Shown here in pieces: positions 1,329-60,605 of a stretch of 64,000 nt of DNA. Location of the stretch: IMG/VR virus record IMGVR_UViG_3300005529_000034, positions 392 to 64,391 of that record, one strand, 5' to 3'. The stretch comes from a virus. The translations under genes and the position numbers were made by a program. The first letter of the stretch is position 1, and the number at the start of each line of letters is the position of its first letter. The notes under the pieces are model-generated. The model ran no database searches, had not been told where the DNA came from, and worked only from the letters and a program-made list of their open reading frames with translations.

Positions 1329-2092
1329 GGAGATATATGTGGATTCCCGACACTCAACTCCGTCGGGGCGTGCCGGTGATCCACATCCGCGCGGCGGCGA
1401 ATGCCATCGTGGAATACCTGCCGGATGTGATCTTCGTTGCCGGCGATTGGTGGGATATGCCCTCTCTCAACAAGCACAATGAGGCGGGCTCTATCCACAC
1501 CGAGGGAACACGGATCAAGGATGACATCGACTTCGGCAACGAGCAATTCGACATTCTCGTGGCGCCGATGAACAAGGAAATCGCCCGGCGGGAGGCCCTG
1601 CACAAACGCCGCTGGAATCCGGAAAGGGAATTCCTCTTCGGGAATCATGAGCACCGGCTGACGCGAGCGATTGCAGCGGTACCTCAATTCGAGGGCGTGC
1701 TGTCGCTCGATATGATGAAGACACCGGGATTCACGCGCCATCCGTTCCTTGAGATTGTCGAGAAGGATGGAATCTGGTTCTCGCATTATTTCAGCAACAC
1801 GCTTTCCGGGCGTGCCATCGGCGGGAGCATCGACAATCGGCTCAATAAGATTGGGCATTCGTTCGTGCAGGGACACCAGCAGGGCCGGCTGTACGGTTCG
1901 CGGCAGTTTCCCGGGAAAGTGGAGCGACATGGCCTCGTGGCGGGGAGCTTCTACCTGCATGACGAGGATTATAGGGATGTACAGAGCAACGGCGAGTGGC
2001 GCGGCATCGTGATCATGAACGAAGTCGCAAACGGCAAATACGACATCATGCCCCTGAGCATGGACTATCTACTGAGGAAATTCGGCGAATGA
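1325..2092 (+). CDS. calcineurin-like metallophosphoesterase
   Basis: IPDTQ, AGDWWD, GNHE, SHY and GHQQ metal-binding motifs in the canonical order. Confidence 0.85.
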   Translation: MRRYMWIPDTQLRRGVPVIHIRAAANAIVEYLPDVIFVAGDWWDMPSLNKHNEAGSIHTEGTRIKDDIDFGNEQFDILVAPMNKEIARREALHKRRWNPEREFLFGNHEHRLTRAIAAVPQFEGVLSLDMMKTPGFTRHPFLEIVEKDGIWFSHYFSNTLSGRAIGGSIDNRLNKIGHSFVQGHQQGRLYGSRQFPGKVERHGLVAGSFYLHDEDYRDVQSNGEWRGIVIMNEVANGKYDIMPLSMDYLLRKFGE

Positions 2093-2346
2093 ACAAGATC
2101 ACGACTCAACGCATTCAGATTCTCAATCACCTGAAGACGGGCGCGGCCATCTCGCCCATCGAGGCGCTGTCGTTGTACGGCTCTTTGCGCCTCGCGGATC
2201 ACATCCATCGGCTGCGCGGTCAGGGCTGGAAAATCGACACCATCGACAAGGTGTCGACGCGCGGCAGCCACTACGCGGAGTACAAGCTCACCGCGGGCGC
2301 TGAGCAGCCCGGCGCGTTTACCGCCCCGACCCAGGCGGCGGCCTGA
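2089..2346 (+). CDS. winged helix-turn-helix protein
   Basis: QILNHLKTG..ISPIEAL..YG.LRLA..IHRLRGQGWKI pattern; ATG at 2089 overlaps upstream TGA. Confidence 0.7.
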   Translation: MNKITTQRIQILNHLKTGAAISPIEALSLYGSLRLADHIHRLRGQGWKIDTIDKVSTRGSHYAEYKLTAGAEQPGAFTAPTQAAA

Positions 2347-2787
2347 ATGGGCAAGGGCTACAACCCACCGCCGCCGAGCGATTGGCGGCCGGGAGGCGTA
2401 CCAGCCGGGGAGGACATTACGCCGTTGGTCGTCGTTGGGGACCTGGAATCCGCTGCGCGCGGCTCGGGCGCCCGAATGAACGGCAACAAGCCCGAGCTGC
2501 ATCAGGTTCCGATGTGGGCACTCTACGGCGTCGCGCGCGTGTTGATGTACGGCGCCAAGAAGTACAAGCCGGGCAACTGGGCCAAAGGAATGCCGTGGAC
2601 CGTCGTGTATGACTGCGCTCTGCGCCATCTCGCAGCATGGCAACGCGGTGAGGAGAACGACGAAGAGAGCGGGCTGCCGCATCTAGATCACGCGCTCTGC
2701 AATCTCATCTTTTTGTCGGCGTACCGCGATCTATACCCGGAAGGGGATGACCGCTGGCCGGAGTTCCGTAAGGGAGGTGTCAAGTGA
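2347..2787 (+). CDS. dATP/dGTP diphosphohydrolase domain protein (DUF5664-like)
   Basis: YGAKKY..GNW.KG, ALRHL..W..GE..DEESGLPHLDHA.CN signature. Confidence 0.85.
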   Translation: MGKGYNPPPPSDWRPGGVPAGEDITPLVVVGDLESAARGSGARMNGNKPELHQVPMWALYGVARVLMYGAKKYKPGNWAKGMPWTVVYDCALRHLAAWQRGEENDEESGLPHLDHALCNLIFLSAYRDLYPEGDDRWPEFRKGGVK

Positions 2788-3209
2788 GCGCCGAACCTGG
2801 AAGCGAGCGGGACCTCTTGGAGCGCAAGCGAGCCTTCGATTCCTTGATGTGGGACCTGAGCATGCTCGATTGCGCGGCGAATAGCTGCCATCGGCTCAAC
2901 GACCACTTTTACCGGGATATCCATACCGGTGAGTGGCTGCAGATGAATCCGGCAGAGAAGATTGCCCTCATGCATAGCGAGCTGTCCGAGATGCTGGAGG
3001 GCGTGCGCAAGAATCTGCAGGACGATCATCTACCGGAGTTCAAATCCGAGGAAGTCGAGGCCGCGGACCTCTTCATTCGGCTTCTGGATTACTGCGGCTG
3101 GCGCAAGTTGCGGTTTGCGGAGGCTGTGAAAGCGAAGCTCCGCTACAACACGACGCGCAAGGATCATACCAACGAAGCCCGCCGCGAGGCGCACGGCAAA
3201 AAGTTCTAG
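2784..3209 (+). CDS. MazG-like NTP pyrophosphohydrolase
   Basis: IALMHSELSE.LE..RK and EEVEAADLFIRLLD acidic helices. Confidence 0.8.
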   Translation: MSAEPGSERDLLERKRAFDSLMWDLSMLDCAANSCHRLNDHFYRDIHTGEWLQMNPAEKIALMHSELSEMLEGVRKNLQDDHLPEFKSEEVEAADLFIRLLDYCGWRKLRFAEAVKAKLRYNTTRKDHTNEARREAHGKKF

Positions 3210-3219
3210 AGGAGAACCT

Positions 3220-3459
3220 GTGAAAGCATTGATCAAGTTGCTGCGGCGCCTGTTCCCCGGCCCGTCAGTTGATTCGATTGTGGGGGACATCGTGCTCAAG
3301 GCCGAGCAGTTGGAGAATCTCAGCGTTCGCCGGCAAGGCGAAATCGAAGAAATCCGGGTTGAGGTGAACAGCAAGCTCACGGAGATGAGCACCAAGGCCG
3401 CGGAAGCCGACCGGGCGCTCAACGTGTGCCGTCGCCTCATGGCGCTGGTGGAGGGCTGA
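3220..3459 (+). CDS. hypothetical coiled-coil protein
   Basis: GAGGAG RBS, GTG start, operon packing. Confidence 0.65.
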   Translation: MKALIKLLRRLFPGPSVDSIVGDIVLKAEQLENLSVRRQGEIEEIRVEVNSKLTEMSTKAAEADRALNVCRRLMALVEG

Positions 3460-3460
3460 T

Positions 3461-3976
3461 ATGCCAATCGAGAAAGACCTGACGCGCATTGCAGTCGCGC
3501 TCGAAGCGATTGCAAAGGTGCTCGTACCGGTGGAGGTGACCAAGGGGACCTCGGTCAAGGGAAAAGCGAAGGCCGCCCCGGTGAGCAAGGAGGAGCAGGA
3601 GACGGCGACCGAGGCGGAAGTCGAAGCGAATGCGGACTCCACGGAGACGGCTGCGCCGGAGCAGACTCCGGGGCCGGCTGTTACCGCCGGGTCATCGACT
3701 TCGGAGACCCCTCCTTCGCAAATGGCGCCTGCGACTACTGCGACGGCTCCGGCTTCTTCTACTCCGAGCCAGACCTCGGCCCCTGCGCCTGTGCCAACCG
3801 AAGATCAGGTGAAGGCGCTGCTGCAAGCGTACCGGACGCATAAATTCGGCTCGGCGCAGGACGCTACGAGCAAGGTGCAAGACGAGCTGGAGAAGCTGGT
3901 TGGCGTGCGCCTCGTGAAGCTCATCAAACCGGAGGATCGCCAGAAGGTGCTTGATGCCTTCAAGGTGGCCGCATGA
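3461..3976 (+). CDS. hypothetical protein with Ala/Thr/Pro-rich linker
   Basis: N- and C-terminal helices joined by low-complexity linker; operon packing. Confidence 0.7.
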   Translation: MPIEKDLTRIAVALEAIAKVLVPVEVTKGTSVKGKAKAAPVSKEEQETATEAEVEANADSTETAAPEQTPGPAVTAGSSTSETPPSQMAPATTATAPASSTPSQTSAPAPVPTEDQVKALLQAYRTHKFGSAQDATSKVQDELEKLVGVRLVKLIKPEDRQKVLDAFKVAA

Positions 3977-5908: not shown

Positions 5909-6087
5909 TGGCCAAAGACGGCCAGCAGTGGATTGTCCAAATCGATGAGGATGTAAAGCTCACCCGCGTTCTCGTCATCAAGCAATACCGCAAGTGTGTC
6001 GAGGTGCAGGAGGTACTCGACGGGCAGGCCAAAGGCCCGAAGCGCATCTACAAGGATACGGATATTGAATTTGTGGAGCAGTGCTAA
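5908..6087 (+). CDS. hypothetical protein
   Basis: TGATG overlap at 5908 and TAATG overlap at 6087. Confidence 0.55.
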   Translation: MAKDGQQWIVQIDEDVKLTRVLVIKQYRKCVEVQEVLDGQAKGPKRIYKDTDIEFVEQC

Positions 6088-7262
6088 TGGGCGCGCATTC
6101 AATCCTCGGACCCTCATCCTCTGACCGCTGGCTCACATGCACCGCCTCGGTGAAAGCGACTAAGGAGCTGGCGGATGTTGAAACGCTGTACTCCCGGCAG
6201 GGCTCGTGTGCGCACCATGTAGCGGAAGTCTGTCGGCGCGATGGATTGAAGCCGGCCATGCTTCTCGGTGCCGAGTTCTACGGCGTCAAGGTCGATCAGC
6301 AAATGATCGATGGCGTTCAAGGCTTTATTGACTACGTCGCCGACTTTCCCGGCGATGAATATAACGAGCAGAAAGTCTACTTCACGAATTGGGTCCCGGG
6401 CGGCTTCGGGACTATGGACGCGGCGAAGGTTTCCCGGGAAAGGGCGCATATCATCGACCTGAAATATGGCGAGGGCGTGCAGGTGTTCGCAAAGGAGAAC
6501 ACGCAGCTCATGCTGTACGCCCTGGGCATGTACCAGATGAACGGCTGGCTCTACGACATTCAGACGTTCGACCTGCATGTCTACCAACCGCGCCTCGATC
6601 ACGTCGATGTTTGGCAAATATCGCTCAAGGACCTCCTGCAGTGGGCGGATGAAATTGTCCGACCCAAGGCGGAAGAGGCTCTCGCCGGCACGGGCAAGTA
6701 TCTCGCCGGAGAGCATTGTCAGTTCTGCAAGATCAGGAAGGTATGTAAGGCGCGTGCTCAGCACATGTTCAACGCGATTACCGGCGAGCTGGAAGACCTT
6801 GACGAGCAAATGACCGCGCCGCTGCCAAAGGTGCCGACGCTCACCGCGGAGCAGGTGGCGAAAGCATTGAGCCTGAAGGGACAAGTAACGAAATGGTTCT
6901 CCGACGTTGCCGATTATGCGGAGGAACAGCTACGCCACGGTAAGCAGGTAGGCGGTTGGAAGCTCGTCGAGGGCCGCAGCAACCGCGTATGGAAGCTCGA
7001 TATTGACGATGTGAGTGATGCTATCTCGAATGCTGGGCTCGACGACAGGAAACTCTGGAAACCCCGCGAGTTCATCTCGCCGGCACAAGCAGATGAGATT
7101 TATGGCAAGAAGTTATTCGCTGCCGCAACCGAGAAAAAGGCAGCAGGGCCGCTCGCGTATCTCGTAGATAAGCCCCGCGGCTCCCCCGTGTTGGCATCGC
7201 CGGACGACAAGCGACCGGCGCTGACAGCGAATCCAGACGAGGAATTGGACTCGTTGGACTAA
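6087..7262 (+). CDS. DUF2800 PD-(D/E)XK (Cas4-like) exonuclease
   Basis: HSILGPSS..RW..C, GT.D, IIDLKYG, QL.LYALG, HCQFC; linked to SSB and PolA. Confidence 0.88.
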   Translation: MGAHSILGPSSSDRWLTCTASVKATKELADVETLYSRQGSCAHHVAEVCRRDGLKPAMLLGAEFYGVKVDQQMIDGVQGFIDYVADFPGDEYNEQKVYFTNWVPGGFGTMDAAKVSRERAHIIDLKYGEGVQVFAKENTQLMLYALGMYQMNGWLYDIQTFDLHVYQPRLDHVDVWQISLKDLLQWADEIVRPKAEEALAGTGKYLAGEHCQFCKIRKVCKARAQHMFNAITGELEDLDEQMTAPLPKVPTLTAEQVAKALSLKGQVTKWFSDVADYAEEQLRHGKQVGGWKLVEGRSNRVWKLDIDDVSDAISNAGLDDRKLWKPREFISPAQADEIYGKKLFAAATEKKAAGPLAYLVDKPRGSPVLASPDDKRPALTANPDEELDSLD

Positions 7263-11041: not shown

Positions 11042-11355
11042 CGACGAGCAAGCGGGTATTCCGCGAGTACCAGATTGAATCTTACTGCAAGCAGGTCGCC
11101 AAAAAGCGCGGCTGGTGGGTCAGCAAATTCGTCAGCCCGTCGAGGAGGTCGATGCCTGATGATATTTTTATCAAGCAGGGGCGCGTCTTCTTCGTCGAGT
11201 TCAAAGCGACGGACGGCGTAGTCACTGCAAATCAGGCAGCCTTACATAAGGAGCTACGGGATCACGGGGCTACGGTCTACGTCATCAGCGACCGCGAGGA
11301 GTTCATGAAGGTACTGGACACGGAGGACTTTGCCCTGGAGATGGCCGGAGGATGA
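11038..11355 (+). CDS. VRR-NUC domain nuclease
   Basis: E..IE, MPDDIF, FFVEFKA, Q..LH.EL. Confidence 0.9.
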   Translation: MTTSKRVFREYQIESYCKQVAKKRGWWVSKFVSPSRRSMPDDIFIKQGRVFFVEFKATDGVVTANQAALHKELRDHGATVYVISDREEFMKVLDTEDFALEMAGG

Positions 11356-12752
11356 GAGAACGGGGAGACTTATACCCGTATCAAAATCGAGTCGTAGAGT
11401 TCATCAAGTCCCACGAGAACTGCGCCATCTGGGTAGACCCCGGACTCGGCAAGACAGTTTCGACCCTCACCGCCTTTGCTGATTTGCGCGACGCGTTCGA
11501 CGCGGAGCGGATGCTCGTCGTAGCACCGCTTCGCGTCGCGCGTCGTGTTTGGCATGCAGAGGTGCAGGACTGGGCGCACTTGCAAGGGCTCACGGTCTCG
11601 CGCATCGTCGGTACGGAGAAGCAGCGGCTTGCGGCTATGGCGCAGCCCGCCCACATTCACACGATCAACCGGGAAAACGTTCAATGGCTGGAAAACTACA
11701 TCGCCCCCAATCGCAAGCAAGTGCGGCCCTGGCCGTGGGACCTCGTGACGCTCGACGAATCACAAAGCTTCAAGAGTCAATCATCTCAAAGATGGAAGAG
11801 TTTACGGCGATTGCGGAAATTGTTTCCCAGGTGCGTAGAACTCACGGGTACAGCCGCGCCCAATGGGTATGGCGATCTATGGTCGCAGATGTTTTTGCTA
11901 GATCGTGGCGCGAGGCTGGGGCAAACGGAGACCGCCTATAGGGACCGCTGGTTTAATCCGCCCGAGTTCGGCGGCTTCACCTGGACTATCAAGGAGCATG
12001 CCAAGGCCGAGATTCAGCAGGCCGTGGCGGATATCACACTCGTCATGCGAGCCGAGGATTACCTCGACCTCCCGCCGGTTCAATACAACCGCATCAGCGT
12101 GCCGCTCTCGCCGGCCATCATGAAGAAGTACCGCGCACTTTCCCGGGAATATATTCTTGAATTGGGCAGCGGTAAGCTGGTGACGGCCGTCAATGCGGGC
12201 GTCTGCCGCAGCAAGCTCCTGCAGCTCGCGAACGGCGCGATTTATGTCGATGAACGCAAATACGAGGTCCTGCACGATGAAAAGCTCGAAGCCCTCGCCG
12301 AAGTGCTCGAAGGGTTGCCCCGACCTGCACTTATCGCCTACGCGTTCCGCCATGATCGCGAGCGCCTTGCGCGCTTCATGGGAAAATTCTGCGGGTCCCA
12401 CGCTCGATTTGCGTTCCTTGATAACGACCGGGCGTTTGATCTATTTGCTGCGGGGCAGCTCGATTACGGAATTGCCCATCCAGGCAGTATGGGTCACGGA
12501 CTAAATGACCTGTACCGTAGCGGCGCAGAACACGCGGTATGGTTTGGCCTTACGGATAATTTGGAGTACTACTTACAATTTAATGCCCGCCTGACGGGCG
12601 GACACAGAAGACGGGGCAAAGCTATTGTAATCCATCACATATTGTGTGATGATACGCAGGACGAAGAGACGTACAGCCTGATCACGCGCAAGGGCGCGAC
12701 TCAGGACGACCTAACGAGCAGTCTTGTTCGTTTGGCGCGGGAGACAACGTGA
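11352..12752 (+). CDS. SNF2-family helicase
   Basis: Walker A PGLGKT, LDESQ, LTGT, C-terminal helicase motifs (GHGLN, QFNARL). Confidence 0.92.
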   Translation: MRERGDLYPYQNRVVEFIKSHENCAIWVDPGLGKTVSTLTAFADLRDAFDAERMLVVAPLRVARRVWHAEVQDWAHLQGLTVSRIVGTEKQRLAAMAQPAHIHTINRENVQWLENYIAPNRKQVRPWPWDLVTLDESQSFKSQSSQRWKSLRRLRKLFPRCVELTGTAAPNGYGDLWSQMFLLDRGARLGQTETAYRDRWFNPPEFGGFTWTIKEHAKAEIQQAVADITLVMRAEDYLDLPPVQYNRISVPLSPAIMKKYRALSREYILELGSGKLVTAVNAGVCRSKLLQLANGAIYVDERKYEVLHDEKLEALAEVLEGLPRPALIAYAFRHDRERLARFMGKFCGSHARFAFLDNDRAFDLFAAGQLDYGIAHPGSMGHGLNDLYRSGAEHAVWFGLTDNLEYYLQFNARLTGGHRRRGKAIVIHHILCDDTQDEETYSLITRKGATQDDLTSSLVRLARETT

Positions 12753-12952
12753 AGATTACAGTAGCCAGTTTGCTCCTGGCTTTGGTCTCGGCTTGCTCTA
12801 TGCAGGACCCTCCCGAGCGGCCTCCAAACCGCTCGGAAGAGTACCGTGTAGCGCGGAAGTGCGTCTATGTCGGGCTTGTGCCCGAGACGCGTAATGGCGA
12901 GACCGTCTGCCGTTTACCTCGCTCCGATGGACAAGGAACCCATCAACCATGA
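12749..12952 (+). CDS. small lipoprotein
   Basis: MKITVASLLLALVSA-C lipobox. Confidence 0.6.
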   Translation: MKITVASLLLALVSACSMQDPPERPPNRSEEYRVARKCVYVGLVPETRNGETVCRLPRSDGQGTHQP

Positions 12953-12965
12953 GAGCGAGGTATCT

Positions 12966-29426: not shown

Positions 29427-29499
29427 GGGAAGTTATTCCTATGGGGTTGAATGGAGCTTTTCGCGAAGCCCACTTTCCCGGGAAAGGGCGTGGACTTTG

Positions 29500-45934: not shown

Positions 45935-46011
45935 TGGCTGACACGGGAGGGCTCGAACCTCCGACCATTCCGTTAACAGCGGAGCGCTCTACCGGACTGA
46001 GCTACGCGTCA
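45935..46011 (-). tRNA. tRNA-Asn (GTT)
   Basis: TGACGCG/CGTGTCA acceptor, GCTC/GAGC D stem, CTGTTAA loop, TTCGAGC T loop, encoded CCA. Confidence 0.92.
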
Positions 46012-46015
46012 AAAG

Positions 46016-46090
46016 TGGCGACCCCGGCGGGAATTCAACCCGCGACCCTCCGCTAGACAGGCGGATGCTCTACCATTGAGCTACGGAGCC
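46016..46090 (-). tRNA. tRNA-Asp (GTC), atypical T loop and U37
   Basis: GGCTCCG/CGGGGTC, TCCGC/GCGGA, CTGTCTA loop, TTGAATT T loop, CCA. Confidence 0.85.
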
Positions 46091-47742: not shown

Positions 47743-48257
47743 GCGGCCTCGCGGACGATTTTGTCGGCGAGATGCCAGAGGTCCGGATGTCCATCGCCCA
47801 AGGCATCATCGAGCAGCCGGCGCTTCTCGGCAAGATACGTCACCGCGAAATCGGGATCATACTTGCGGATGCTCTTGGAATTATCGATGAGGTCGGCGAG
47901 CTTGATCGTCTTGATTTCACGCGGCTGGGCGGCGAGGCGCATGCGCTCGCGCTCTTTGCGCTCAAGGCGATTCAGCCGAGGATACGCGTGCGGTGTATAG
48001 AGGTCGGTCAGGCCGACGACGTAGCTCGCCACGGTGATGCCGAAGTCCCGGCGAACGTCATCGGCGTTGGCCATTGTGTCTTCGATGACATCGTGTAGCC
48101 ATGCCGCTGCGATCATCTCATCCGTGCCGCCGTGCAAAGTCACGAGGTGCGCAACAGCCTCCGGATGCCGCCAATACGGCTCGGAGGTATACTTGCGCAC
48201 TTGATCGCCGTGCCACTTGATCGCGGCAAGGCGTGCTCGCTTGATGAGGTTACTCAC
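47739..48257 (-). CDS. HD-domain hydrolase, RelA/SpoT (Mesh1/SAH) type
   Basis: EPY..HP..VA, AAWLHDVIEDT, IKLAD.IDN. Confidence 0.85.
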   Translation of the reverse strand: MSNLIKRARLAAIKWHGDQVRKYTSEPYWRHPEAVAHLVTLHGGTDEMIAAAWLHDVIEDTMANADDVRRDFGITVASYVVGLTDLYTPHAYPRLNRLERKERERMRLAAQPREIKTIKLADLIDNSKSIRKYDPDFAVTYLAEKRRLLDDALGDGHPDLWHLADKIVREAA

Positions 48258-48737: not shown

Positions 48738-48814
48738 GGGAACCTTACCGGAGGATCAGGGATCGCGAGCATAAGCAAACCGAGGGCGATCACCACGAGG
48801 CAGAGAGCGCTCAT
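48734..48814 (-). CDS. small membrane peptide (26 aa; absent from ORF track)
   Basis: MSALCLVVIALGLLMLAIPDPPVRFP; overlaps both neighbours by 4 nt. Confidence 0.4.
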   Translation of the reverse strand: MSALCLVVIALGLLMLAIPDPPVRFP

Positions 48815-49032
48815 CGGGTGATGTGCTTCACGGCCCACATGACCGCTTGCTCCATGTTGGTCGCCGCGAGCGACAGCTCACGACTCGCGCCGAGTTGCTT
48901 CAGGTACTCGACGAAGTCGAGGCCCTTATCCTTGATCGCCTTCATGGCGAGCTTGTCGGTCTCCGACAGCACGCGGTACTCGTGGCGCATCACGTTGTTG
49001 ACGGTGCGCTCGTCTGAAGTCGAATCGATCAT
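48811..49032 (-). CDS. Acb2/Tad1-like helical-hairpin protein (putative signal sponge)
   Basis: HEYRVLS..K..M..IK and SRELSLA.T..EQAVMWA pattern. Confidence 0.7.
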   Translation of the reverse strand: MIDSTSDERTVNNVMRHEYRVLSETDKLAMKAIKDKGLDFVEYLKQLGASRELSLAATNMEQAVMWAVKHITR

Positions 49033-49065
49033 GGATGCTCCAGCCGGTTGCGGCGTGAGGTGAAA

Positions 49066-49142
49066 TGGTTGCGGGGGCAGGAGTTGCACCTGCGATATCC
49101 GGCTTATGAGGCCGGAGCCTTAACTGCCTTGGCGACCCCGCC
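49066..49142 (-). tRNA. tRNA-Met/Ile2 (CAT), G1:A72 mismatch
   Basis: GCGGGG/CCCCGC acceptor, CCGGC/GCCGG, CTCATAA loop, TGCAACT T loop, ACCA. Confidence 0.85.
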
Positions 49143-49225
49143 AGAATGCAGCCCGTCTTCCCCGACGGGCAGGGCCTGCAGCGGTGGCCGGAATGACCGG
49201 GCGGCACGGATGCCGCAGGATTTCT

Positions 49226-49297
49226 TGGTGGACCCGTCGGGAGTCGAACCCGCAGAACCTCCTTGCAAGGGAGGCGCGTCGCCCGCGACACAAGCCC
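49226..49297 (-). tRNA. tRNA-Ala (TGC) with shortened D arm
   Basis: G3-U70 pair, CCTCC/GGAGG, CTTGCAA loop, TTCGACT T loop, ACCA; 72 nt. Confidence 0.8.
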
Positions 49298-49914: not shown

Positions 49915-50048
49915 ATCGGTGAAGCCCAAACGCACGGTACCCGGTTTCCCGGGAAAATGGGTCGGCCTCTCACCGACTGGGACGCGTCACATCTCTGGGC
50001 CTTTTGATCGGTTAAGCCCAAACGCACGGTACCCGGTTTCCCGGGAAA
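49915..50048. repeat. 42-bp direct repeat, two copies, 92-bp period
   Basis: 49915-49956 and 50007-50048 are 41/42 identical; each ends in TTTCCCGGGAAA. Confidence 0.9.
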
Positions 50049-50174
50049 GCGAGCAGGGAGGCTACCGGGCGGACCCGCCAAGGAACGCCCGACGCAGGTC
50101 GGGGACGTTGGCGCGGCGCCCGACCTACCCGCGCAATCAGCGCAGGTGCCTATTCGAAAAAGCTCTGGAATTTC

Positions 50175-50366
50175 AAAATTTTACAGGGGATTCGGTCTCC
50201 CGAGCAGCGTCTCTTGCACCGACGCCCGGTAGGGCTCGTGAGACCGGATTCCGTGTAAAAATTTTCCAGGGATCACGGGTCCCCTGACCGCGCGCACTTC
50301 GAAGCTCTCGGACTGCCATCAGCCGTCGGCCGGGGAGACGTGATCCCTGGAAAATTGTAAAATTTT
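50175..50366. repeat. chained inverted repeats with AAAATTTT tracts
   Basis: perfect 18-bp IR 50260-50277/50339-50356; imperfect IR 50175-50199/50240-50265. Confidence 0.8.
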
Positions 50367-50566
50367 CAGAACTCGGCTGCTTGCGTATACGTACGCGCGC
50401 CGCGTTCCACCGGCCACCCGGATTCGGGATCGAGGGGGCGTGGCCGTCCGCGTTAACGAGGGGACCCATCGGGCGTTAACGGATGACCGTCTAGCGGTCG
50501 CGCGTGACCATTGCGTGGTCGTTCGGGCTAGTGCGCATAATCCCCATTATGTTACCTGCCCTTGCA

Positions 50567-50610: not shown

Positions 50611-51009
50611 TCAGAAGTCCGCATCGGTTTCTGACGGGACTGGCACGGTTTTCGCCGGCCTCGCGGGCTGGGTCTCGACCCCCACCGGGAAGGCCTCTAA
50701 AACCGCCGGAGAAGCTCCTAGCGCCGGGATCGCGTCTGGCCGGTCCTCGACTACCACCCTCATGGGCATCGCCTCATAAGCCGCCAGAATCGTCGTACGC
50801 GTCTCCGCCGGGATGATCTTCCCGAGCAGGCCCAGGAACACGTCTGGCCGCTTCCGGGCGACCCGGAGCAGGTAATCCTGGCCTCCGGCGGCGCGGAAAG
50901 CGCCCTCGATGGCGTCCTTGATCGACTGGCTGAGCCGATTCGGGCCTCGGGGCTTACGGTTACCCGCTTTGTCGGACCCCGGTAATTTCGCCTTAGCCGG
51001 AGCTGACAA
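50611..51009 (-). CDS. terminase small subunit
   Basis: RKPRGPNRL...IKDAIE.AF...GG..YL..VA...P.VFL.LLGKIIP; first gene of late arm. Confidence 0.75.
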   Translation of the reverse strand: MSAPAKAKLPGSDKAGNRKPRGPNRLSQSIKDAIEGAFRAAGGQDYLLRVARKRPDVFLGLLGKIIPAETRTTILAAYEAMPMRVVVEDRPDAIPALGASPAVLEAFPVGVETQPARPAKTVPVPSETDADF

Positions 51010-51360
51010 AGCGCTTTTCTTTCAAAATCATGGGCTTACGATATCAGGTAACCTGAGACTGGGTCGTCCGCGGCCCCTGACAGGCGCCCTAACCGCCTGA
51101 TTCGTAAGCCATTTCCCGGGAATATCGGCCGCCCGGATCACCGGGCAGCCTCACGCCGCCGTTGCGTCGTGCGCGGTCGGGCGAAAATCATCGGGGCTCA
51201 CACAGGTATCGCCGGATTTTCCCAACCGTCTCACCCAATTTTGCTGGGTTCACCCCTCACGCGGTGGCCAATCGGGTATAAATCCCTACGGGATTTATAT
51301 ACCCCCGACTGGCCAAGCCGACGCGAGATAGGGGCGCCCGACCGGCAATGGCCGATGAAG

Positions 51361-51785
51361 TGGCCAGTCACCGGCCAGCGCTAACTCCATGATTCTCATC
51401 AGGAAATCGACAAATGGCCGGTGAAGTGGCCAGTCACCGGCCACAATTTTGTCGGCTATATCCAGCGCGCACAAGTGCTTGATTTCCTTAGAGAGGCCTC
51501 GGCGAGCGGTTGCCCAGTCACTTGCCCTTGATTTCATTGACATTTTTCCTTGCGATCCCGCGCTCACAATCGTATGCGATGACCACTAGGTGGACAACAC
51601 ACGTAAGCTCTTGATTCTCTTACGTGGGCGGTGTGGCCGGTCGACTGGCCAGTCACCGGCCACCGACCGGCCAAATGAGGCGCGGCGAGCGCGTCACGGA
51701 TAGCCAAAATGCCACTTTAATGAAGCGGATCAACCATTTGTGCGCGCTGGATATAGCCTACAGAAAACTGGCCGGTCACCGGCCA
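51361..51785. repeat. divergent control region: four 17-mers and an approximately 58-bp imperfect inverted repeat
   Basis: TGGCCAGTCACCGGCCA at 51361, 51427, 51646, variant at 51769; IR about 51426-51483 / 51729-51786. Confidence 0.85.
51472..51616 (-). promoter_or_regulatory. two IHF consensus sites
   Basis: CAAGTGCTTGATT (51472-51484) and TAAGCTCTTGATT (51604-51616) match YAANNNNTTGATW. Confidence 0.5.
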
Positions 51786-52931: not shown

Positions 52932-53414
52932 ATGGGGAGACCGCGGGAATCGGGAATCTACACGGCGCGCGAGCCGCGGTGCCTGCCTAAGAGGCGGCAC
53001 CGTTGGAAGAGTCCGCGCGTCGTGTTCGGCGATGGAGACCTCTGGAACGAAGCAGGGCACGTGCTGCAACGGGAATGTTGCGCCAATTGCGGCTGGTACA
53101 AGTTCACGGAGTCCGACGACTCAGTCCTCTATCACGAGCCAGACAAGCGCTCTCTTGCCTGGATCAAATCGCAACCGAACACGAGGAAAGACGACATGGA
53201 ACAGACACTGCAAGAAATCGCGCTGAATTTTATCAAGCGCGTCGAATATTCCACGCCCGGTGAGCTGGAGCACCTCTATATCATGCTGCGCACCTACGAG
53301 CATGACGTCGGACGGAAGTCCTCAATGCGGCATTTTGCGGCGAAGCTGAAGGGCATCCTGCCCTTCCAGACAGAGGCCGTCTTGCTGGGTCTGAATCATT
53401 ACAAACCGACGTGA
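52932..53414 (+). CDS. hypothetical early protein with CCxxC
   Basis: GGAGGG RBS before ATG 52932; RECCANCG. Confidence 0.55.
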   Translation: MGRPRESGIYTAREPRCLPKRRHRWKSPRVVFGDGDLWNEAGHVLQRECCANCGWYKFTESDDSVLYHEPDKRSLAWIKSQPNTRKDDMEQTLQEIALNFIKRVEYSTPGELEHLYIMLRTYEHDVGRKSSMRHFAAKLKGILPFQTEAVLLGLNHYKPT

Positions 53415-53707
53415 GGGGCACTGTCGTGAAACAGAAATCCGGTATCCAGGGCTCAGGGATCACGGTCTCAACTCGCCTGAGCTTCCAGCAACAGTGCGAT
53501 GTGCGCGCGGGCCTGCTCTGCCTCGCTCAGTCCATTCACAAGGTCGCGAAGCATTGGCCAGCCGCGGAATGGGTAGTGCGCATGATGCAGTTGCGCGATT
53601 TGGAGCGGCAACTCTTCGGCGCGGCTCCCACAATGCATGCATTCATGGAACTGGAACAGCGGCGGAACTTTCCCGGGAAAGCCAAATCCACTACGCGGTC
53701 ATCCTGA
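53411..53707 (+). CDS. hypothetical early protein
   Basis: GTGA overlap; start uncertain. Confidence 0.45.
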   Translation: MRGTVVKQKSGIQGSGITVSTRLSFQQQCDVRAGLLCLAQSIHKVAKHWPAAEWVVRMMQLRDLERQLFGAAPTMHAFMELEQRRNFPGKAKSTTRSS

Positions 53708-53746: not shown

Positions 53747-53812
53747 CACGCCACACCGCAAACGCGGTAAGGGTCGCCGGCCCCGAGTCCGGCAACGATG
53801 GAGATACTGATC

Positions 53813-54955
53813 ATGGCAACTCTGATGAAAGCTTCGCACCAGTGGGCCACGCGCCCGGCCGACGAGCGTTTCACTTCGCTGATTGCGCTCAATGACCACG
53901 TTCAACACGAGCATCAATTCAGCCGGGCGAAGTGCGTCAGCTCGCGCGCCGTCAAAGCCTGTCCGGCCATCCTGAACGAGACCGGCACGCCCTACGACAC
54001 CGCAGGGCTTCAGGTCCTGGGACCGAACGGCGACGCGGTCAATCTCACGCACTGGAGCTTCTCGCAGCTCGCCCAGCGGGCCGGTGCCCCGGCGGGCTAT
54101 CTGCGGGACCTGCCCTCCCCGCTCGCCGCGGACTGCGTGAACTTCGGCTTGCAGACGCGCAACGTGGAAGACCTCGGGGTCCTCCTCTACAAGAATGGCG
54201 GTGACCCGTTCCTGCGCGCGGTGACCGGCCCGAATTACGGGCGCGTGTGGAACTCGACGATCACGCAGGCGCTCGTCAATCGCTTCGGCGATGGCATTAC
54301 GGGCGACTTCCGGGTGCCCGGTGAGTTTGGCAAGCAGGTGGCGGTCACCAAGGCCAACACGACGCTCTACGCGAGCGACAGAGACATGTTCGTGTTCCTG
54401 GCGGATGAAACCCACCGCATCGAGATTCCGAACCGCCGCAACGGCAAGAAGGGCTCACTCGCACGCGGCTTTTTCATCTGGAATTCCGAGGTCGGCAGCA
54501 CCTCACTCGGTATTGCCATGTTCCTGTTCGATTACGTGTGCGGCAACCGCATCGTCTGGGGTGCGGAACAGATTGCGGAGCTGCGCGTGCGCCACACGGT
54601 CTCCGCTCCGGCCCGCTGGATCGCGCAGTGCATCCCGGCCATCGAGCGCGTATCGCAGTCGGCAACCGAGGGTGTGGTCAAGACGATCACGCAGGCGCAG
54701 CTTACGAAGATTGCGAGCGGCACGGATGAGCTGGAGCGCGAGAAAGCGGTCAGTAAGTTCCTGGCTGAGCGCTTCAGCAATTCTCAGGTGTCTTTCATCA
54801 AGGCCGCGCACATGGCCGAGGAGGAGCGTCCTATCGAGTCCATCTGGGACGCGGTGACAGGGATCACGGCTTATGCGAAGACGGTTGAGTATCAGGACGA
54901 GCGCGTGAAGCTGGAGCGCGAAGCGGGCAAGCTCCTGCAGAAGGTCGGCAAGTAA
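53813..54955 (+). CDS. DUF932 family protein
   Basis: QWA.RP.DERF.SL, WSF.QLA..GAP..YL, LYASDRDMFVF, RGFF.WNSEVG, DYVCGNRIVWG. Confidence 0.75.
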   Translation: MATLMKASHQWATRPADERFTSLIALNDHVQHEHQFSRAKCVSSRAVKACPAILNETGTPYDTAGLQVLGPNGDAVNLTHWSFSQLAQRAGAPAGYLRDLPSPLAADCVNFGLQTRNVEDLGVLLYKNGGDPFLRAVTGPNYGRVWNSTITQALVNRFGDGITGDFRVPGEFGKQVAVTKANTTLYASDRDMFVFLADETHRIEIPNRRNGKKGSLARGFFIWNSEVGSTSLGIAMFLFDYVCGNRIVWGAEQIAELRVRHTVSAPARWIAQCIPAIERVSQSATEGVVKTITQAQLTKIASGTDELEREKAVSKFLAERFSNSQVSFIKAAHMAEEERPIESIWDAVTGITAYAKTVEYQDERVKLEREAGKLLQKVGK

Positions 54956-55008
54956 CAACGGAGGGCGAGGCGTATCGATTGCGGTACGCCTCGCCTGGGA
55001 GACCTGCG

Positions 55009-55272
55009 ATGAAAGTCGAAGTCCTATTGAGCGCTGAAGAAGATGTCATCGTGGAATTAGAAGTCACGCGGGAGGAATGCGCCGCATTGCTGCGGCTAGC
55101 GGAGGGTTTGCGGCAGAAACGCAGTTGTTACGCGCCGACCATGTCGGTAACGCCTGCCGTCATGGAGCGTGGCAATTGCCCCCTCTGCGGCCAGAAGCGC
55201 AATCCGCGGTTTGAGGTCTGTTCGTGCATCGAGCCGAACGCGTTGCCCTTTTTCCCGGGAAACGGAGTCTGA
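55009..55272 (+). CDS. hypothetical protein with zinc-finger-like CPLC..CSC
   Basis: GGGAG RBS; Cys cluster. Confidence 0.55.
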   Translation: MKVEVLLSAEEDVIVELEVTREECAALLRLAEGLRQKRSCYAPTMSVTPAVMERGNCPLCGQKRNPRFEVCSCIEPNALPFFPGNGV

Positions 55273-56434: not shown

Positions 56435-56661
56435 CCTCTCTGCGAATTCCGCATTTCCGTACCAAGCCCGGTGAGAGTTACGACTCCGCCCGCGCTCGCT
56501 GGCAGACGCGCATGAATGAATATCAGGACGCCGTGGTCATGAATGATTGCGCCGCGCACAGCACAGGCTTTTGCAAGCGGCGCCATCACATCTATTGGGC
56601 CTTTCATGGCATGACAGCAATGGAAGCCGCGCAGGTGCTCGCGGAGGACGAACATGAGTGA
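56431..56661 (+). CDS. hypothetical early protein
   Basis: GAGG RBS, ATGA overlap. Confidence 0.55.
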   Translation: MTSLRIPHFRTKPGESYDSARARWQTRMNEYQDAVVMNDCAAHSTGFCKRRHHIYWAFHGMTAMEAAQVLAEDEHE

Positions 56662-57007
56662 GACGCTAATCGCCAATATCAGCGCCTGTCCGTACCTCAG
56701 TGCCGAGCTGCATGTGGGGACGGTCGTAAGCCTCCTCCAATCTCGGGAGCGCTATACGGCCACGGAATGGCGTCAGAAGGCCCGCGTGATCCTGGGCGAA
56801 GTCTTGCACGCCACCCGTGCATTGAAGCGGGCGCACAACCCACCGCTGCTGCGCACGGTCACCCGCGTGAGTCCCGCGGTGTGGGTTCCCGGTTGGCCGA
56901 ACATCGACACGGTCATGTGCAATGTCGTGGCCGCACGCTTCCAGCGGTTAGAGCGCGAGCTTCGAAGCCTGCGCCGCCGTGCCCCACTCTACGGAGTCAG
57001 ACTATGA
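56654..57007 (+). CDS. hypothetical early protein
   Basis: GGAGG RBS. Confidence 0.55.
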   Translation: MSETLIANISACPYLSAELHVGTVVSLLQSRERYTATEWRQKARVILGEVLHATRALKRAHNPPLLRTVTRVSPAVWVPGWPNIDTVMCNVVAARFQRLERELRSLRRRAPLYGVRL

Positions 57008-57291
57008 AACCCGAGCACGATTCCTTGACTGTCATCCTGTCCGCCCTAGGGGCCGTCCTCATTGCCATTCTCATGGGCGTCTTGCTCGCCTTGATGGCAG
57101 GACCGGCGTGCGCAAGCGGCGCACCGACCGCAGACGAGAAGCTGCAGCGCATTTTTTGCGAAGCGGATGCAGGGCTCGCCGCAACCAACGCTCAAGTCGA
57201 AGCCGCCGGCCAATGGGCAGCGGCGCAGTCGACGCGCACGCAGGTTTACGTTTGCCCGAATGTGATCATTGCGGAATCAAATTCCCGCTAG
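57004..57291 (+). CDS. putative exported/membrane protein
   Basis: long hydrophobic N-terminus ending PACA; GGAG RBS. Confidence 0.55.
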   Translation: MKPEHDSLTVILSALGAVLIAILMGVLLALMAGPACASGAPTADEKLQRIFCEADAGLAATNAQVEAAGQWAAAQSTRTQVYVCPNVIIAESNSR

Positions 57292-57346
57292 GTCGCGAGA
57301 AGATTTTCCGGCGGGGTACCCGTCATACTTCGAAAGAGAGAGACAT

Positions 57347-57640
57347 ATGGCTGAGAATGTGCAACCGACAGTGATCTTTTGTCGTTTCCGCTGCGGGCGA
57401 GTAGTCACGCCTCCCAAACGCAAGACGAAGCGCAACGGCAAGCGCCCGCGAATGAAAACTGTCTGCGACATTTGTCGCGACAATATGAGTGGCTGGGCGC
57501 GCAAGGGCACGCAACGCGCTGCGCGCTACGGTGCACAGCTCCTCGTACGCTCCAACCGCATGAGTCACGTGGTGGATGAGGAGACCATAAACCGCTACAT
57601 CGAACGCGAGGAAAAGCGCGCCCAGAAGGGGGCCACATGA
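57347..57640 (+). CDS. basic protein with two Cys pairs (zinc-finger-like)
   Basis: CRFRCG and VCDIC, Lys/Arg-rich. Confidence 0.55.
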   Translation: MAENVQPTVIFCRFRCGRVVTPPKRKTKRNGKRPRMKTVCDICRDNMSGWARKGTQRAARYGAQLLVRSNRMSHVVDEETINRYIEREEKRAQKGAT

Positions 57641-57960
57641 AACGCACAGTGCTCGATCTACAGAAGGACGCGTACCCCGAGGAGAACGCGCCCGGGTTGC
57701 GGCAGTATCAACGCGACGCTTTAACAATGCTCCGCGCGAGGCTCGATCCCACGGCTATTGGCTTTGATGCATCCGAACCGGTGCGGGCGGCTTTACAGCA
57801 TGAGGCGGTCGCAACTTATTTCCGCGCATGGGTCCTGCCTCTGGTCGATCTAGCGGCTGGGAGCGGCTATCGTGGCCAGCGGAATGATGTTGCCTACGAT
57901 GCGAATGTGGTGCGCGGCAAGCGGCATGAGGCGCTGCGGGCGAAGGAGCTGAAGCCATGA
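57637..57960 (+). CDS. hypothetical early protein
   Basis: ATGA overlaps. Confidence 0.55.
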   Translation: MKRTVLDLQKDAYPEENAPGLRQYQRDALTMLRARLDPTAIGFDASEPVRAALQHEAVATYFRAWVLPLVDLAAGSGYRGQRNDVAYDANVVRGKRHEALRAKELKP

Positions 57961-58202
57961 AGCGCAGCGCTGAATCGATCCGCAAACAGAAAGCCACCCT
58001 CGCGGCCAAGCGGAAACAGAAGAAAGCGAGTAAGGCGGATACGGGCTTGCGCATGTGGGATGTCAAGATTGCGATCATCGCGCTACGCCGCATTCGCGCC
58101 CGCATGGTGAAGCGTCTCAATACGGGCGCTCTGGCGTGGCCGAATGACGACCACATCGATGCACTCGATGCGTTGCGCCATCTCACCGGGGAGGAGAGCT
58201 GA
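57957..58202 (+). CDS. basic hypothetical protein
   Basis: AAGGAG RBS, ATGA overlap. Confidence 0.55.
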   Translation: MKRSAESIRKQKATLAAKRKQKKASKADTGLRMWDVKIAIIALRRIRARMVKRLNTGALAWPNDDHIDALDALRHLTGEES

Positions 58203-58203
58203 T

Positions 58204-58614
58204 ATGTGCTTCACTATTGGCGCTCCTCCCAAGGGTGGGCTACGACGACGCATTGCTTGGAAAGTCTTGCATGTCGAGCCATCTGGGCGATTGCGGAGTT
58301 ATTTCGTGGACGATTGTAAGTGGATTCCAGGCAAGGCCAAGCGCGCGAACAAGGGGCCAATACGGGCTGATGATAAAGCCAGTCACGGTATCTATGTCTT
58401 TCTCAGCCGCTCTGAGGCGGTCAAGTTTGCTGACGACCTCCGAGCTGTCGTCGTTACCGTGCGCGTCGATCCCGCAGATTTCCTGTTTCGCAGTTCCTGC
58501 CACCGGTATGCAACTTACCGCAGAGTTATTCTCGACCCAAGTGCTGAGCAAGCGCGAGTGAAAGCCTATGAACGAGCCAAACGTCTCTACTACACATATG
58601 CCGCGTACGGTTGA
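58204..58614 (+). CDS. hypothetical early protein
   Basis: GAGGAG RBS; AWKV, SHGIYVF pattern. Confidence 0.55.
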   Translation: MCFTIGAPPKGGLRRRIAWKVLHVEPSGRLRSYFVDDCKWIPGKAKRANKGPIRADDKASHGIYVFLSRSEAVKFADDLRAVVVTVRVDPADFLFRSSCHRYATYRRVILDPSAEQARVKAYERAKRLYYTYAAYG

Positions 58615-59748: not shown

Positions 59749-59927
59749 GACCAGACCTGAGAAGGTGTCTGCGGGCCGCGTTGGTGCTTTACCACGCGGC
59801 CTGTACGACAAACGAGACGTATCCGGCGGCCTTCGGACTTGCAGTCAGCTACTACCAACAACTTTCAGGCTGTACCCTTTTAGAAGCCTGCCGGATCGTG
59901 AAGCGCGCCCTTGACGCGCGCCAATAA
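59745..59927 (+). CDS. hypothetical protein
   Basis: GTGA overlap; followed by terminator. Confidence 0.4.
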   Translation: MRPDLRRCLRAALVLYHAACTTNETYPAAFGLAVSYYQQLSGCTLLEACRIVKRALDARQ

Positions 59928-59980
59928 TTGAACTAGCTCCCGCCATGCTTTCCCGGGAAAACTTCCCGGCTAGCATGTTA

Positions 59981-60019
59981 GCCCGCGACGTCGCAATACG
60001 TAGCGGGCCTTTTTATTTT
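59981..60019 (+). terminator. intrinsic terminator
   Basis: GCCCGC..ACGT/ACGT..GCGGGC stem followed by CTTTTTATTTT. Confidence 0.7.
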
Positions 60020-60031
60020 CGATAGCCCCTA

Positions 60032-60061
60032 TTGCAACATCTACTCACTGGAGAGTAGATT
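60032..60061 (+). promoter_or_regulatory. candidate sigma70 promoter
   Basis: TTGCAA-N18-TAGATT. Confidence 0.4.
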
Positions 60062-60104
60062 TTGCCTCGAACAAGTAACTTCCAAAGGCACAGGGGTTCT
60101 TAAT

Positions 60105-60605
60105 ATGCTCAATCGTCAAGCCTGCTTCGAGCAGGCGGTGTCCCATATTGCCCGACAAAATTGCCTCGCCCTGCGGTATGGCTTCGATGTGTTCGGCCAA
60201 GAAACCATGATGTGCGGCTACCGCTCCACGAGCGCGAGCGGGCGCGTTCTCAAATGCGCAGTCGGGGCGCTCATTCCAGATGATCGCTATCGAAAGGGTG
60301 TCGAGCGTTGCCGTGCATCAGCCATTATGGCCTTCCTCGATCCGGCACTCGGTAAGGCAGGCCCCGAGGATGCAGACTTCATTGATAGCCTGCAACGTCA
60401 GCTCCATGACTCTCAATGGCATGACGGACGCGGTTTTTCCCGGGAAAGGCTCATCATGCAGGCGCACGTCTTCGCCCGGGATTACGGCCTCGATCCTTCC
60501 ATTCTCGCGAACCTGCCGGAGCCTGATCCCGATACAAATCCGGTCCAGGTCGCGAGCGCAAATCCAGAATCAACCACCGTGGGAGACGAGCATGCGACCG
60601 CTTGA
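60105..60605 (+). CDS. hypothetical protein
   Basis: C.YRS..G..KCAVG.LIPD..Y, LQ.QLHD pattern common in small phage proteins. Confidence 0.65.
   Translation: MLNRQACFEQAVSHIARQNCLALRYGFDVFGQETMMCGYRSTSASGRVLKCAVGALIPDDRYRKGVERCRASAIMAFLDPALGKAGPEDADFIDSLQRQLHDSQWHDGRGFSRERLIMQAHVFARDYGLDPSILANLPEPDPDTNPVQVASANPESTTVGDEHATA

Follow-up and report, generated by a model that had tools for sequence, protein, structure and literature searches.

The DNA studied here belongs to an uncultured soil phage whose 66,530-bp contig (C67) was binned with a soil metagenome-assembled genome (MAG); the window that was analysed is a 64,000-nt stretch of this contig, and coordinates refer to the window except where the contig is named. 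The phage is known from one soil metagenome alone, and a single strain is seen in the sole public run that holds its DNA. Scattered over the contig is the word TTTCCCGGGAAA, a perfect 12-bp dyad without a spacer, which is present in 13 exact copies and three near copies (11 of 12 positions), 16 sites in total. The 12 exact and three near copies that an earlier note had located in the window were all found again at the positions given below, the near copies ending in ..AAT (12139 and 51112) or ..AAG (13264), and the window has no further match at one mismatch or fewer; the 13th exact copy lies just past its end, at contig position 64459 (window-equivalent 64067). Site density is about one per 4 kb, and Chi in E. 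coli has a similar density.

Ten of the 16 sites lie within genes. From the left, exact copies are found at 1907–1918 in a metallophosphoesterase-like gene (1325–2092; read in frame 0 as FPGK), 170 bp upstream of the start of a winged-helix (wHTH) gene at 2089, and at 6430–6441 in a gene for a DUF2800 PD-(D/E)XK nuclease (6081–7262; VSRE). The near copy TTTCCCGGGAAT follows at 12139–12150 in an SNF2 helicase gene (11352–12752; LSRE), and TTTCCCGGGAAG at 13264–13275 in a 484-aa ORF (12867–14321; FSRE). Three minus-strand genes carry exact copies: a SprT-like gene (17012–17533; copy 17292–17303, FPGK), a PAPS-reductase-domain gene (23914–24693; copy 24423–24434, VSRE) and a 607-aa structural-arm gene (36952–38775; copy 37622–37633), in which the glycine of FPGN uses the rare GGA codon. 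The copy at 29474–29485 occupies a 153-bp gap between minus-strand genes 28806–29426 and 29580–30098. Two further copies (49945–49956 and 50037–50048) form the last 12 bp of the units of a 42-bp direct repeat (49915–49956 and 50007–50048; period 92 bp, one mismatch between units), the first unit of which lies in the non-coding control region that heads the minus-strand arm, and a second TTTCCCGGGAAT copy lies at 51112–51123, 103 bp upstream of the start (51009) of a DUF5681-like gene. Farther right, the copies at 53669–53680 and 55251–55262 fall in the final codons of ORFs 53411–53707 (FPGK) and 54979–55272 (FPGN), 118 bp upstream of a DUF932 gene (53798–54955) and 13 bp upstream of an ATG at 55276, respectively. 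The copy at 59949–59960 is in a 356-bp intergenic gap (59749–60104), with a partial half-site, CTTCCCGG, 1 bp downstream at 59962–59969, and that at 60436–60447 is in ORF 60105–60605 (phrog_17693; FSRE).

These copies greatly exceed expectation. Markov models of order 0 to 6, trained with the motif masked, predict 0.002–0.006 exact copies, so the enrichment is borne out by the k-mer comparison that the earlier note had called for; its figure of about 0.003 is correct for the order-0 model, while its GC estimate of about 62% is replaced by a measured 60.3%. In dinucleotide shuffles, matches with no more than one mismatch averaged 0.13 (maximum 2), compared with 15 observed, and TTTCCCGGGAAA is the most over-represented 12-mer on the contig; CTTTCCCGGGAA is counted 15 times there. 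The fall-off with mismatch is sharp (13 exact, three one-off and three two-off), and the mismatches of all three near copies are confined to the outermost base, as expected of a binding site whose edge contributes least. The flanks are unconserved, with a weak C/G signal at position 1 and no other position above 0.28 bit.

The intragenic copies show that the word is kept by selection on the DNA. All three reading frames are used, giving FPGK, V/L/F-SRE and FPGN/K as had been claimed, and synonymous-codon permutation yields 0.03 exact copies within genes where eight are observed. The frame-0 copies require four minor codons (joint probability 0.0017), and five of the 11 SRE tripeptides are encoded as TCCCGGGAA. 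The copies occupy variable parts of otherwise conserved proteins: the LSRE of the SNF2 copy (12139) aligns without a gap to LERT in orthologue L007, the SprT-like copy (17292) aligns gap-free to different residues in L007, and the DUF2800 copy (6430) lies in a variable loop flanked by conserved blocks, where L018 aligns gap-free and L017 and L019 each carry 2 additional aa. A 12-bp mobile insertion was rejected because orthologues have different residues opposite the copies, gap-free in these SNF2, SprT-like and DUF2800/L018 alignments. Frames, minor codons, permutation and orthologue alignments thus agree with the proposal that selection acts on the nucleic acid rather than on the protein.

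The metagenomic origin of the contig is all that could suggest an assembly or sequencing artefact, a reading that we regard as already effectively refuted and of negligible probability: each copy has unique flanks and leaves the reading frame of the gene that holds it intact, and an independent assembly has no differences in the region at about 11–13x, although it was made from the sole public run with this DNA, a run that is possibly the contig's own source.

Gap lengths between sites fit random placement, without significant regularity of spacing. The non-coding 10.4% of the contig holds six of the 16 sites (P = 0.004), and the late arm holds just four (P = 0.04). An association of some copies with promoters or terminators, suggested previously, proved weak, with no promoter-like element at a fixed distance and a hairpin at 29474 only. 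A promoter element for host sigma-70 or for the phage sigma factor was likewise rejected, there being no promoter-like match near the sites and no fixed-distance element. The 29474 copy does sit at the apex of an extended intergenic hairpin (z = −3.7), which would fit a function in the transcript, for example as a terminator or attenuator; however, folding is not significant at the remaining 15 sites (z from −2.3 to +1.4), the 12-mer by itself can form a 4-bp stem at most, no U-tract or T-run follows the sites, and they are found in genes, in every frame and on both coding strands. An RNA function for the set is therefore extremely improbable.

The word is unique to C67 as a multi-copy array. 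The remaining 5.27 Mb of the MAG assembly has no exact copy, and its near-matches are not in excess, being equal in number to those of control palindromes, so there is no host regulon. Among 200 genomes of the family and 400 of the class it occurs 0–2 and 0–3 times per genome, respectively, and unclustered; IMG/VR holds no multi-copy contig (the 14-mer CTTTCCCGGGAAAG matched 53 contigs, one copy apiece). No close relative was found by PolA scans of IMG/VR, GTDB genomes or JGI metagenomes. The nearest relatives found have only the replication module in common, at about 50% amino acid identity, and contain neither TTTCCCGGGAAA nor any other dispersed palindrome. Contigs of a Gammaproteobacteria MAG have that module in common with the phage.

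These counts bear on the possibility that the word is an iterated palindrome of the HIP1 type or is targeted for modification or restriction, through CCCGGG methylation or phosphorothioation; the earlier note had raised HIP1, methylation and recombination. The central CCCGGG is one of the classic type II sites, and the PAPS-reductase-domain (PP-loop) gene in the structural arm itself carries a copy. Nevertheless, the MAG lacks the word and the 600 genomes have few copies; C67 has no gene of a DNA methyltransferase family, its sole methyltransferase domain being fused to an MptE-like domain, a family whose members are not DNA methyltransferases; and outside the motif CCCGGG is neither over-represented nor avoided, at 541 per Mb versus 512 per Mb in the MAG. 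To our knowledge, a specificity of 12 bp far exceeds that of modification enzymes. We consider this explanation very unlikely, and the suggested ties to HIP1, methylation and recombination were not upheld. A Z-genome was also rejected: a MazZ-like gene is present, but C67 has no PurZ-like adenylosuccinate synthetase.

Could the sites be cis signals for a DNA transaction rather than for regulation? Packaging initiation by the DUF5681-like protein as a small-terminase-type factor, replication initiation or helicase loading, and site-specific nicking or recombination would each be options. At the head of the late arm, three sites fall in the 1.2 kb surrounding the DUF5681-like gene, and the 42-bp repeat contributes two of these; one exact copy adjoins the start of the primase-helicase gene; and a ligase, a VRR-NUC protein and a PD-(D/E)XK nuclease are among the phage gene products. 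The spread over 13–16 places is unlike known pac sites and origins, which are local, symmetric nicking of a perfect palindrome would break the genome, and DUF5681 has no demonstrated function. Such a role is unlikely.

Which protein might bind the sites? Among the proteins of the contig, recognisable DNA-binding domains are confined to the wHTH and the sigma factor. The wHTH protein (2089–2346, plus strand; 85 aa, Pfam HTH_39, E 2e-12) is one candidate binder; the other candidates are ORFans. The first of these is a 239-aa protein (62152–62871, plus strand) with an HTH-like C-terminal part and an N-terminal half that appears helical or coiled-coil by eye (feature scores of at most 0.81, a lead only), whose ORF lies directly upstream of the phage sigma-factor gene (62926–63612). 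The second is the 132-aa basic DUF5681-like protein (50611–51009, minus strand), the sole gene of a 2.6-kb control region. A binder search in Pfam, PHROGs, PDB (phmmer), the ESM Atlas and a separate set of 5.8 billion proteins gave no decisive result. Pfam and PHROG searches of the approximately 80 ORFs, in which most early ORFs are ORFans, detected no immunity repressor, integrase or partition (parABS) gene.

A phage ParB, Noc or KorB was rejected: searches of the whole assembly for ParB_N and HTH_ParB (PF02195 and PF17762; E ≤ 1) hit host contigs only (C65 strongly) and nothing on C67, and a motif scan for a GERRxRA-type arginine box was empty in every C67 coding frame. No ParA-type partner is present on the phage. 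The comparison of the array with parS or matS thus holds in form, but the phage has no recognisable ParB-family protein. That same lack counts in favour of sites that recruit a host protein, for example a CTP clamp of the ParB/Noc family or some other regulator from the true host, which is possibly not the binned MAG; the link to the MAG is by binning only, and C67 is its strongest tetranucleotide outlier. Moreover, the 12-mer is identical to positions 2–7 of each half of the B. subtilis Noc-binding site (NBS) as seen in the Noc co-crystal (PMC7383237), and TTTCCCGGGAAA differs from parS at one symmetric position pair, being otherwise the same. Against this, Noc is reported to be restricted to Firmicutes and ParB proteins to favour parS over NBS (PMC7383237), and the phage has a GC content of 60%, shares its replication module with Gammaproteobacteria MAG contigs and has a csrA 72–79% identical in nucleotide sequence to MAG loci. 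The base preceding TTTCCC in the 26 half-sites is C in 14, G in six, T in four and A in two, so that C prevails where NBS has A and parS has G. The MAG, with its lack of exact copies or excess near-copies, also has a single ParB, which is canonical, and a parS of canonical type (TGTTCCACGTGAAACA), both of which count against a host protein; mimicry of the host parS was rejected on these facts. Recruitment of a host protein is quite unlikely, and a host factor as binder is disfavoured.

The sites probably serve as a docking set for a dimeric DNA-binding protein that the phage encodes and that acts across its genome. That the word is bound by a protein, and that this protein is a dimer of phage origin with the role outlined here, we infer from the form and distribution of the sites; the earlier suggestion of a dimeric-protein site stands to the extent that a stand-alone dyad word fits one. 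TTTCCCGGGAAA would be a high-affinity double-stranded DNA site for a dimeric sequence-specific protein, most likely encoded by the phage, of which about 16 are retained round the 66.5-kb genome, denser in early and control regions and enriched between genes. The bound protein would then act on the whole genome rather than on a single promoter, and its likeliest role would be to control phage transcription globally, through silencing or as a roadblock in the manner of KorB, P1 C1 and stoperators; marking or organising phage DNA would be the second option. Simple control of initiation fits poorly, given that 10 of the 16 sites lie within genes and that none has a promoter-like element at a constant distance.

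A more specific proposal, doubtful in our estimation, is that the array is a self-marking barcode and that a phage protein unrelated to ParB has converged on the Noc-type half-site TTTCCC and loads at the sites. If true, the array might help to organise or protect phage DNA, or to have it selectively replicated or packaged, given a host chromosome without the site, and would represent a genome-wide function in an apparently virulent phage other than transcription control.

How does the array compare with known systems? A HIP1-like palindrome would be abundant in the host chromosome and accompanied by a cognate DNA methyltransferase, and here neither is found. Intrinsic terminators have a GC-rich stem-loop and a U-tract, and here a significant hairpin is seen at one of 16 sites. 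Cluster A stoperators are likewise short operators in many dispersed copies, some intragenic, and are bound by one phage protein that silences transcription (discussed in PMC4351075); they are, however, asymmetric, oriented with transcription and recognised by the immunity repressor of temperate phages, whereas TTTCCCGGGAAA is a perfect palindrome, and the proposed analogy fails on their asymmetry and probably also on temperate lifestyle.

All 12 positions of TTTCCCGGGAAA are identical to the core of the Noc co-crystal duplex, with TTTCCC equal to NBS positions 2–7, and NBS are also dispersed and often intragenic (PMC7383237), but a second, Noc-like ParB is missing from phage and MAG alike, and TTTCCCGGGAAA is absent from the MAG chromosome. 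The IncP plasmid RK2 has about a dozen operators (OB) for KorB, and their word also has TTT...AAA outer arms. These OB sites present one palindrome scattered over a replicon of about 60 kb, near to and far from promoters, and they serve global long-range silencing (PMC11790492). KorB, a CTP clamp of the ParB family, acts together with KorA, and the phage differs in having no ParB_N, HTH_ParB, GERRxRA or ParA-type sequence. Compared with the ParB/Noc/KorB networks as a whole, C67 has the half-site palindrome TTTC...GAAA but neither an element-encoded ParB nor the expected base at position 1. TTTCCCGGGAAA happens to equal the core of a well-studied ParB-family site, yet a gene of that family is missing from the phage.

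Of the published cases, the closest is a 17-bp dyad repeat in the Cluster O mycobacteriophages (in Corndog TGTTCGG-N3-CCGAACA, 34 copies), for which dimeric-protein binding was predicted and no function assigned (PMC4351075), nor has one been assigned since 2015. Both are invariant dyad words, at least 10 and partly intragenic, that run through a tailed-phage genome of about 70 kb without a recognisable integrase or partition system and without a tie to promoters; the Cluster O repeats are denser at one end, with about one third within genes. The present word differs in being 12 bp long without a spacer, in having 16 copies (13 exact and three near) rather than 34–37, 10 of them in genes, and in a host of proteobacterial type rather than Mycobacterium. 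Together, Cluster O (PMC4351075) and the KorB OB sites (PMC11790492) provide precedents for a single DNA-binding protein with sites spread over a replicon of about 60–70 kb. The array thus belongs to a known but unexplained kind, of which it is a clean case, with codon evidence that the word was forced into genes and a co-binned bacterial genome without it; it offers a test of whether dispersed arrays serve global gene silencing or self-marking and organisation, and of the convergence of unrelated proteins on the ParB/Noc half-site.

A search of the window at up to one mismatch found exact copies of the 12-bp palindrome TTTCCCGGGAAA starting at 1907, 6430, 17292, 24423, 29474, 37622, 49945, 50037, 53669, 55251, 59949 and 60436 (n = 12) and 11/12 copies at 12139, 13264 and 51112 (n = 3), precisely the 15 places listed in the earlier note; 100 dinucleotide-preserving shuffles of the window gave a mean of 0.13 such matches and a maximum of 2. 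A thirteenth exact copy lies just beyond the window at contig position 64459, within the 15-bp gap preceding the primase-helicase gene of C67, the 66,530-bp phage contig that holds the window at its positions 393–64392. With the copies masked during training, Markov models (orders 0–6) predict 0.002–0.006 exact copies against the 13 present on C67, which confirms the enrichment that the earlier note wished to see checked, and the word is the top over-represented 12-mer on the contig. The copy spectrum is steep (13 exact, 3 one-change and 3 two-change), and the altered base is the outermost one in all three one-change copies. That the copies are an artefact is scarcely credible.

Ten of the 16 sites (13 exact and three 11/12 copies) are intragenic, and their translation bears out the three-frame reading of the earlier note: they are read as FPGK, xSRE and xFPGN/K. 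The frame-0 copies use the codons TTT, CCC, GGG and AAA, whose relative usages of 0.21, 0.24, 0.14 and 0.25 give a joint probability of 0.0017; TCCCGGGAA spells five of the 11 SRE tripeptides, at an expectation of 0.013 each; and FPGN/K has the motif spelling in every case, the rare GGA codon included. When synonymous codons were permuted with all protein sequences kept, exact copies in genes fell from the observed 8 to 0.03 and copies of the 10-bp core from 10 to 0.31. Frames, codon usage and permutation together firmly show that selection acts on the DNA, as the earlier note had held in saying that it acts on the nucleic acid and not on the protein. The copies in the SNF2 helicase and in the SprT-like protein align without gaps to other residues in a relative, and in the DUF2800 nuclease the copy occupies a variable loop flanked by conserved blocks, with no gap against one relative's locus (L018), while two others (L017 and L019) are longer by 2 aa in that loop. 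Insertion of the copies as 12-bp units is thus rejected in these three genes, and the sites were therefore written by point substitution into tolerant parts of the proteins.

The flanks of the word are unconserved except for a weak C before and G after it (14 of 26 half-sites) and ≤0.28 bit at three other positions. The earlier note had placed some copies near promoters; no promoter-like element was found at a fixed distance from the sites, and no predicted sigma-70-type promoters lie near them, so the link to promoters is weak. Site 29474 alone lies at the tip of an extended hairpin (z = −3.7); folding at the remaining 15 sites is not significant and the 12-mer by itself forms a stem of 4 bp at most, which argues against an RNA element, a reading we consider highly improbable. 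A perfect, isolated dyad retained at such cost looks like a site at which a dimeric protein binds double-stranded DNA.

Non-coding DNA, 10.4% of C67, holds 6 of the 16 sites (P = 0.004) and the late arm holds 4 (P = 0.04), and the gap lengths between sites are compatible with random placement. The tightest cluster of sites is in the control region, 2.6 kb of non-coding DNA separating the arms; there a 42-bp direct repeat (49915–49956 and 50007–50048; one mismatch, 92-bp period) has an exact copy of the word terminating each unit; this repeat is also the break point of an independent assembly. That the sites are a signal for a DNA transaction is unlikely. The control region has a single gene, for a DUF5681-like protein (132 aa), and the 11/12 copy at 51112 is 103 bp upstream of it. 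Two further features were seen here: an AT-rich patch in mid control region (50150–50370), with AAAATTTT-CAGGG-type words repeated in inverted orientation, may be a structured RNA or origin-like element, and a 17-bp quasi-palindrome TGGCCAGTCACCGGCCA (TGGCC-N7-GGCCA) occurs at 51361–51785 in three exact and one one-change copies (0.16 expected), all of them in non-coding DNA that precedes the early arm. The latter resembles a local group of operators or iterons, separate from the genome-wide word.

C67 can be read as a tailed-phage genome made up of three arms: a replication arm from the contig start to about 17 kb (plus strand), a structural arm at 17–50 kb (minus) and an early arm that begins at about 52 kb and runs to the end of the contig (plus). 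Its genes include those for replication and DNA metabolism (primase-helicase, PD-(D/E)XK DUF2800 nuclease, Enc34-type SSB, family A polymerase, VRR-NUC, SNF2 helicase, ATP-dependent ligase and the MazZ-like and MazG-like nucleotide hydrolases), regulators (CsrA, a small wHTH protein and a sigma factor), virion proteins (portal, major head protein, large terminase and tail proteins) and four tRNAs, and the majority of early ORFs belong to no family. The MazZ-like dATP/dGTP diphosphohydrolase (2347–3209; PF18909, E 8e-29) is preceded by a metallophosphoesterase and followed by the MazG-like pyrophosphatase; C67 has no PurZ-like adenylosuccinate synthetase, so this is a nucleotide-pool module without the Z-genome synthase. 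Within the structural arm, a PAPS-reductase-domain gene (23914–24693) and a SAM-methyltransferase fused with an MptE-like domain (41842–43461) are enzymes out of the ordinary for a virion module. A pooled Pfam scan of 33 small ORFs, in which the matching ORF is not told apart, gave hits to the hairpin domain of Acb2/Tad1 (E 9e-18) and to an HD domain (E 2e-14), placed by the earlier note at 48811–49089 and 47739–48257, respectively; tRNA genes adjoin these ORFs (Met and Ala at 49066–49297, Asn and Asp at 45935–46090). Two assemblies of C67 begin at the identical base, which may be a physical genome end.

C67 was binned in a 5.33-Mb assembly of 107 contigs, from which it differs in GC content (60.3% versus 65.2% in the remainder) and in which it is the most extreme tetranucleotide outlier among contigs ≥30 kb. 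The sole public run containing C67 DNA is a soil metagenome from 2017, so the assembly is presumably a metagenome-assembled genome (MAG) and it is binning that ties the phage to this host. A single sequence link joins the two: the phage csrA (15852–16205) shares 72–79% nucleotide identity with three loci of the MAG (on C2, C69 and C40). The C67 replication module resembles contigs of a Gammaproteobacteria MAG, and both likenesses would be in keeping with a proteobacterial host akin to the binned MAG. The contig is a mosaic: only its replication module (primase-helicase, SSB, PolA, VRR-NUC, SNF2, DUF2800 and SprT-like) has relatives among the fetched loci, at 40–55% amino acid identity; the same loci hold none for the structural arm and for almost all early genes.

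The word is confined to this phage. No copy occurs in the remaining 5.27 Mb of the assembly, where the one-off (7) and two-off (165) near-copies match the medians (7.5 and 120) for 30 control palindromes of equal composition; there is therefore no MAG regulon based on the word. Per genome it occurs 0–2 times in the same family (200 genomes) and 0–3 times, never clustered, in the class (400 genomes), findings that do not support the HIP1-like iterated palindrome suggested earlier. Recruitment of a host factor by the sites is a doubtful alternative. The 14-mer CTTTCCCGGGAAAG is found in 53 IMG/VR contigs, in a single copy each. The closest relatives by polymerase (one whole IMG/VR provirus, one MAG contig and four metagenome contigs; about 50% identity) have only the replication module in common with C67, and have neither the word nor any other dispersed palindrome. 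Searches of the C67 genes found no integrase, repressor, ParA/ParB or DNA methyltransferase, and we think it very unlikely that the sites are a modification target.

The reading we judge best, and moderately probable, is that the sites would be docking sites for a dimeric DNA-binding protein; for these a genome-wide regulatory role is favoured over a self-marking or organising one. Candidate binders are the 85-aa wHTH protein (HTH_39), encoded at 2089–2346 by a gene that begins 170 bp downstream of site 1907; a 239-aa ORFan (62152–62871) with weak HTH-like language-model features and no match but itself among 5.8 billion proteins; the DUF5681-like protein encoded at 50611–51009, which three sites flank; and several small basic ORFans, at 53411–53707, 56654–57007, 57269–57640, 57957–58202 and 58144–58614. 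PDB sequence searches and IMG/VR relatives gave no clue to the binder, and no homologues of the candidates were found in relatives that lack the word, so that this comparison eliminates none of them.

Full-text literature searching with the word led to papers on ParB and Noc. The core of the NBS (Noc-binding site) duplex in the Bacillus subtilis Noc co-crystal is TTTCCCGGGAAA, and NBS and parS half-sites differ at positions 1 and 6 (PMC7383237); the phage word is identical to NBS at positions 2–7, whereas position 1 is mostly C in the phage, A in NBS and G in parS. ParB proteins are reported to favour parS, and Noc to be restricted to Firmicutes (PMC7383237). Pfam ParB_N and HTH_ParB match host contigs only and nothing on C67, the arginine-box motif is absent from all its coding frames, and the MAG has one canonical ParB and one canonical-type parS with no second, Noc-like paralogue; membership of the phage system in the ParB/Noc family thus fails. 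The resemblance is a lead toward convergence or a possible unrecognised HTH protein, not a classification.

Among other dispersed sites, stoperators are asymmetric and serve temperate immunity, whereas the phage word is a perfect palindrome. The KorB OB sites of RK2 are dispersed palindromes that can serve long-range silencing and require a ParB-family clamp (PMC11790492), whereas C67 has no recognisable ParB. The closest published case is that of the Cluster O mycobacteriophages, whose roughly 70-kb genomes have 34 copies of TGTTCGG-N3-CCGAACA and no integrase/partition system; about a third of these repeats are intragenic, and they have no tie to promoters and no assigned function (PMC4351075). 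The phage word joins a known, still unexplained class of dispersed phage palindromes.
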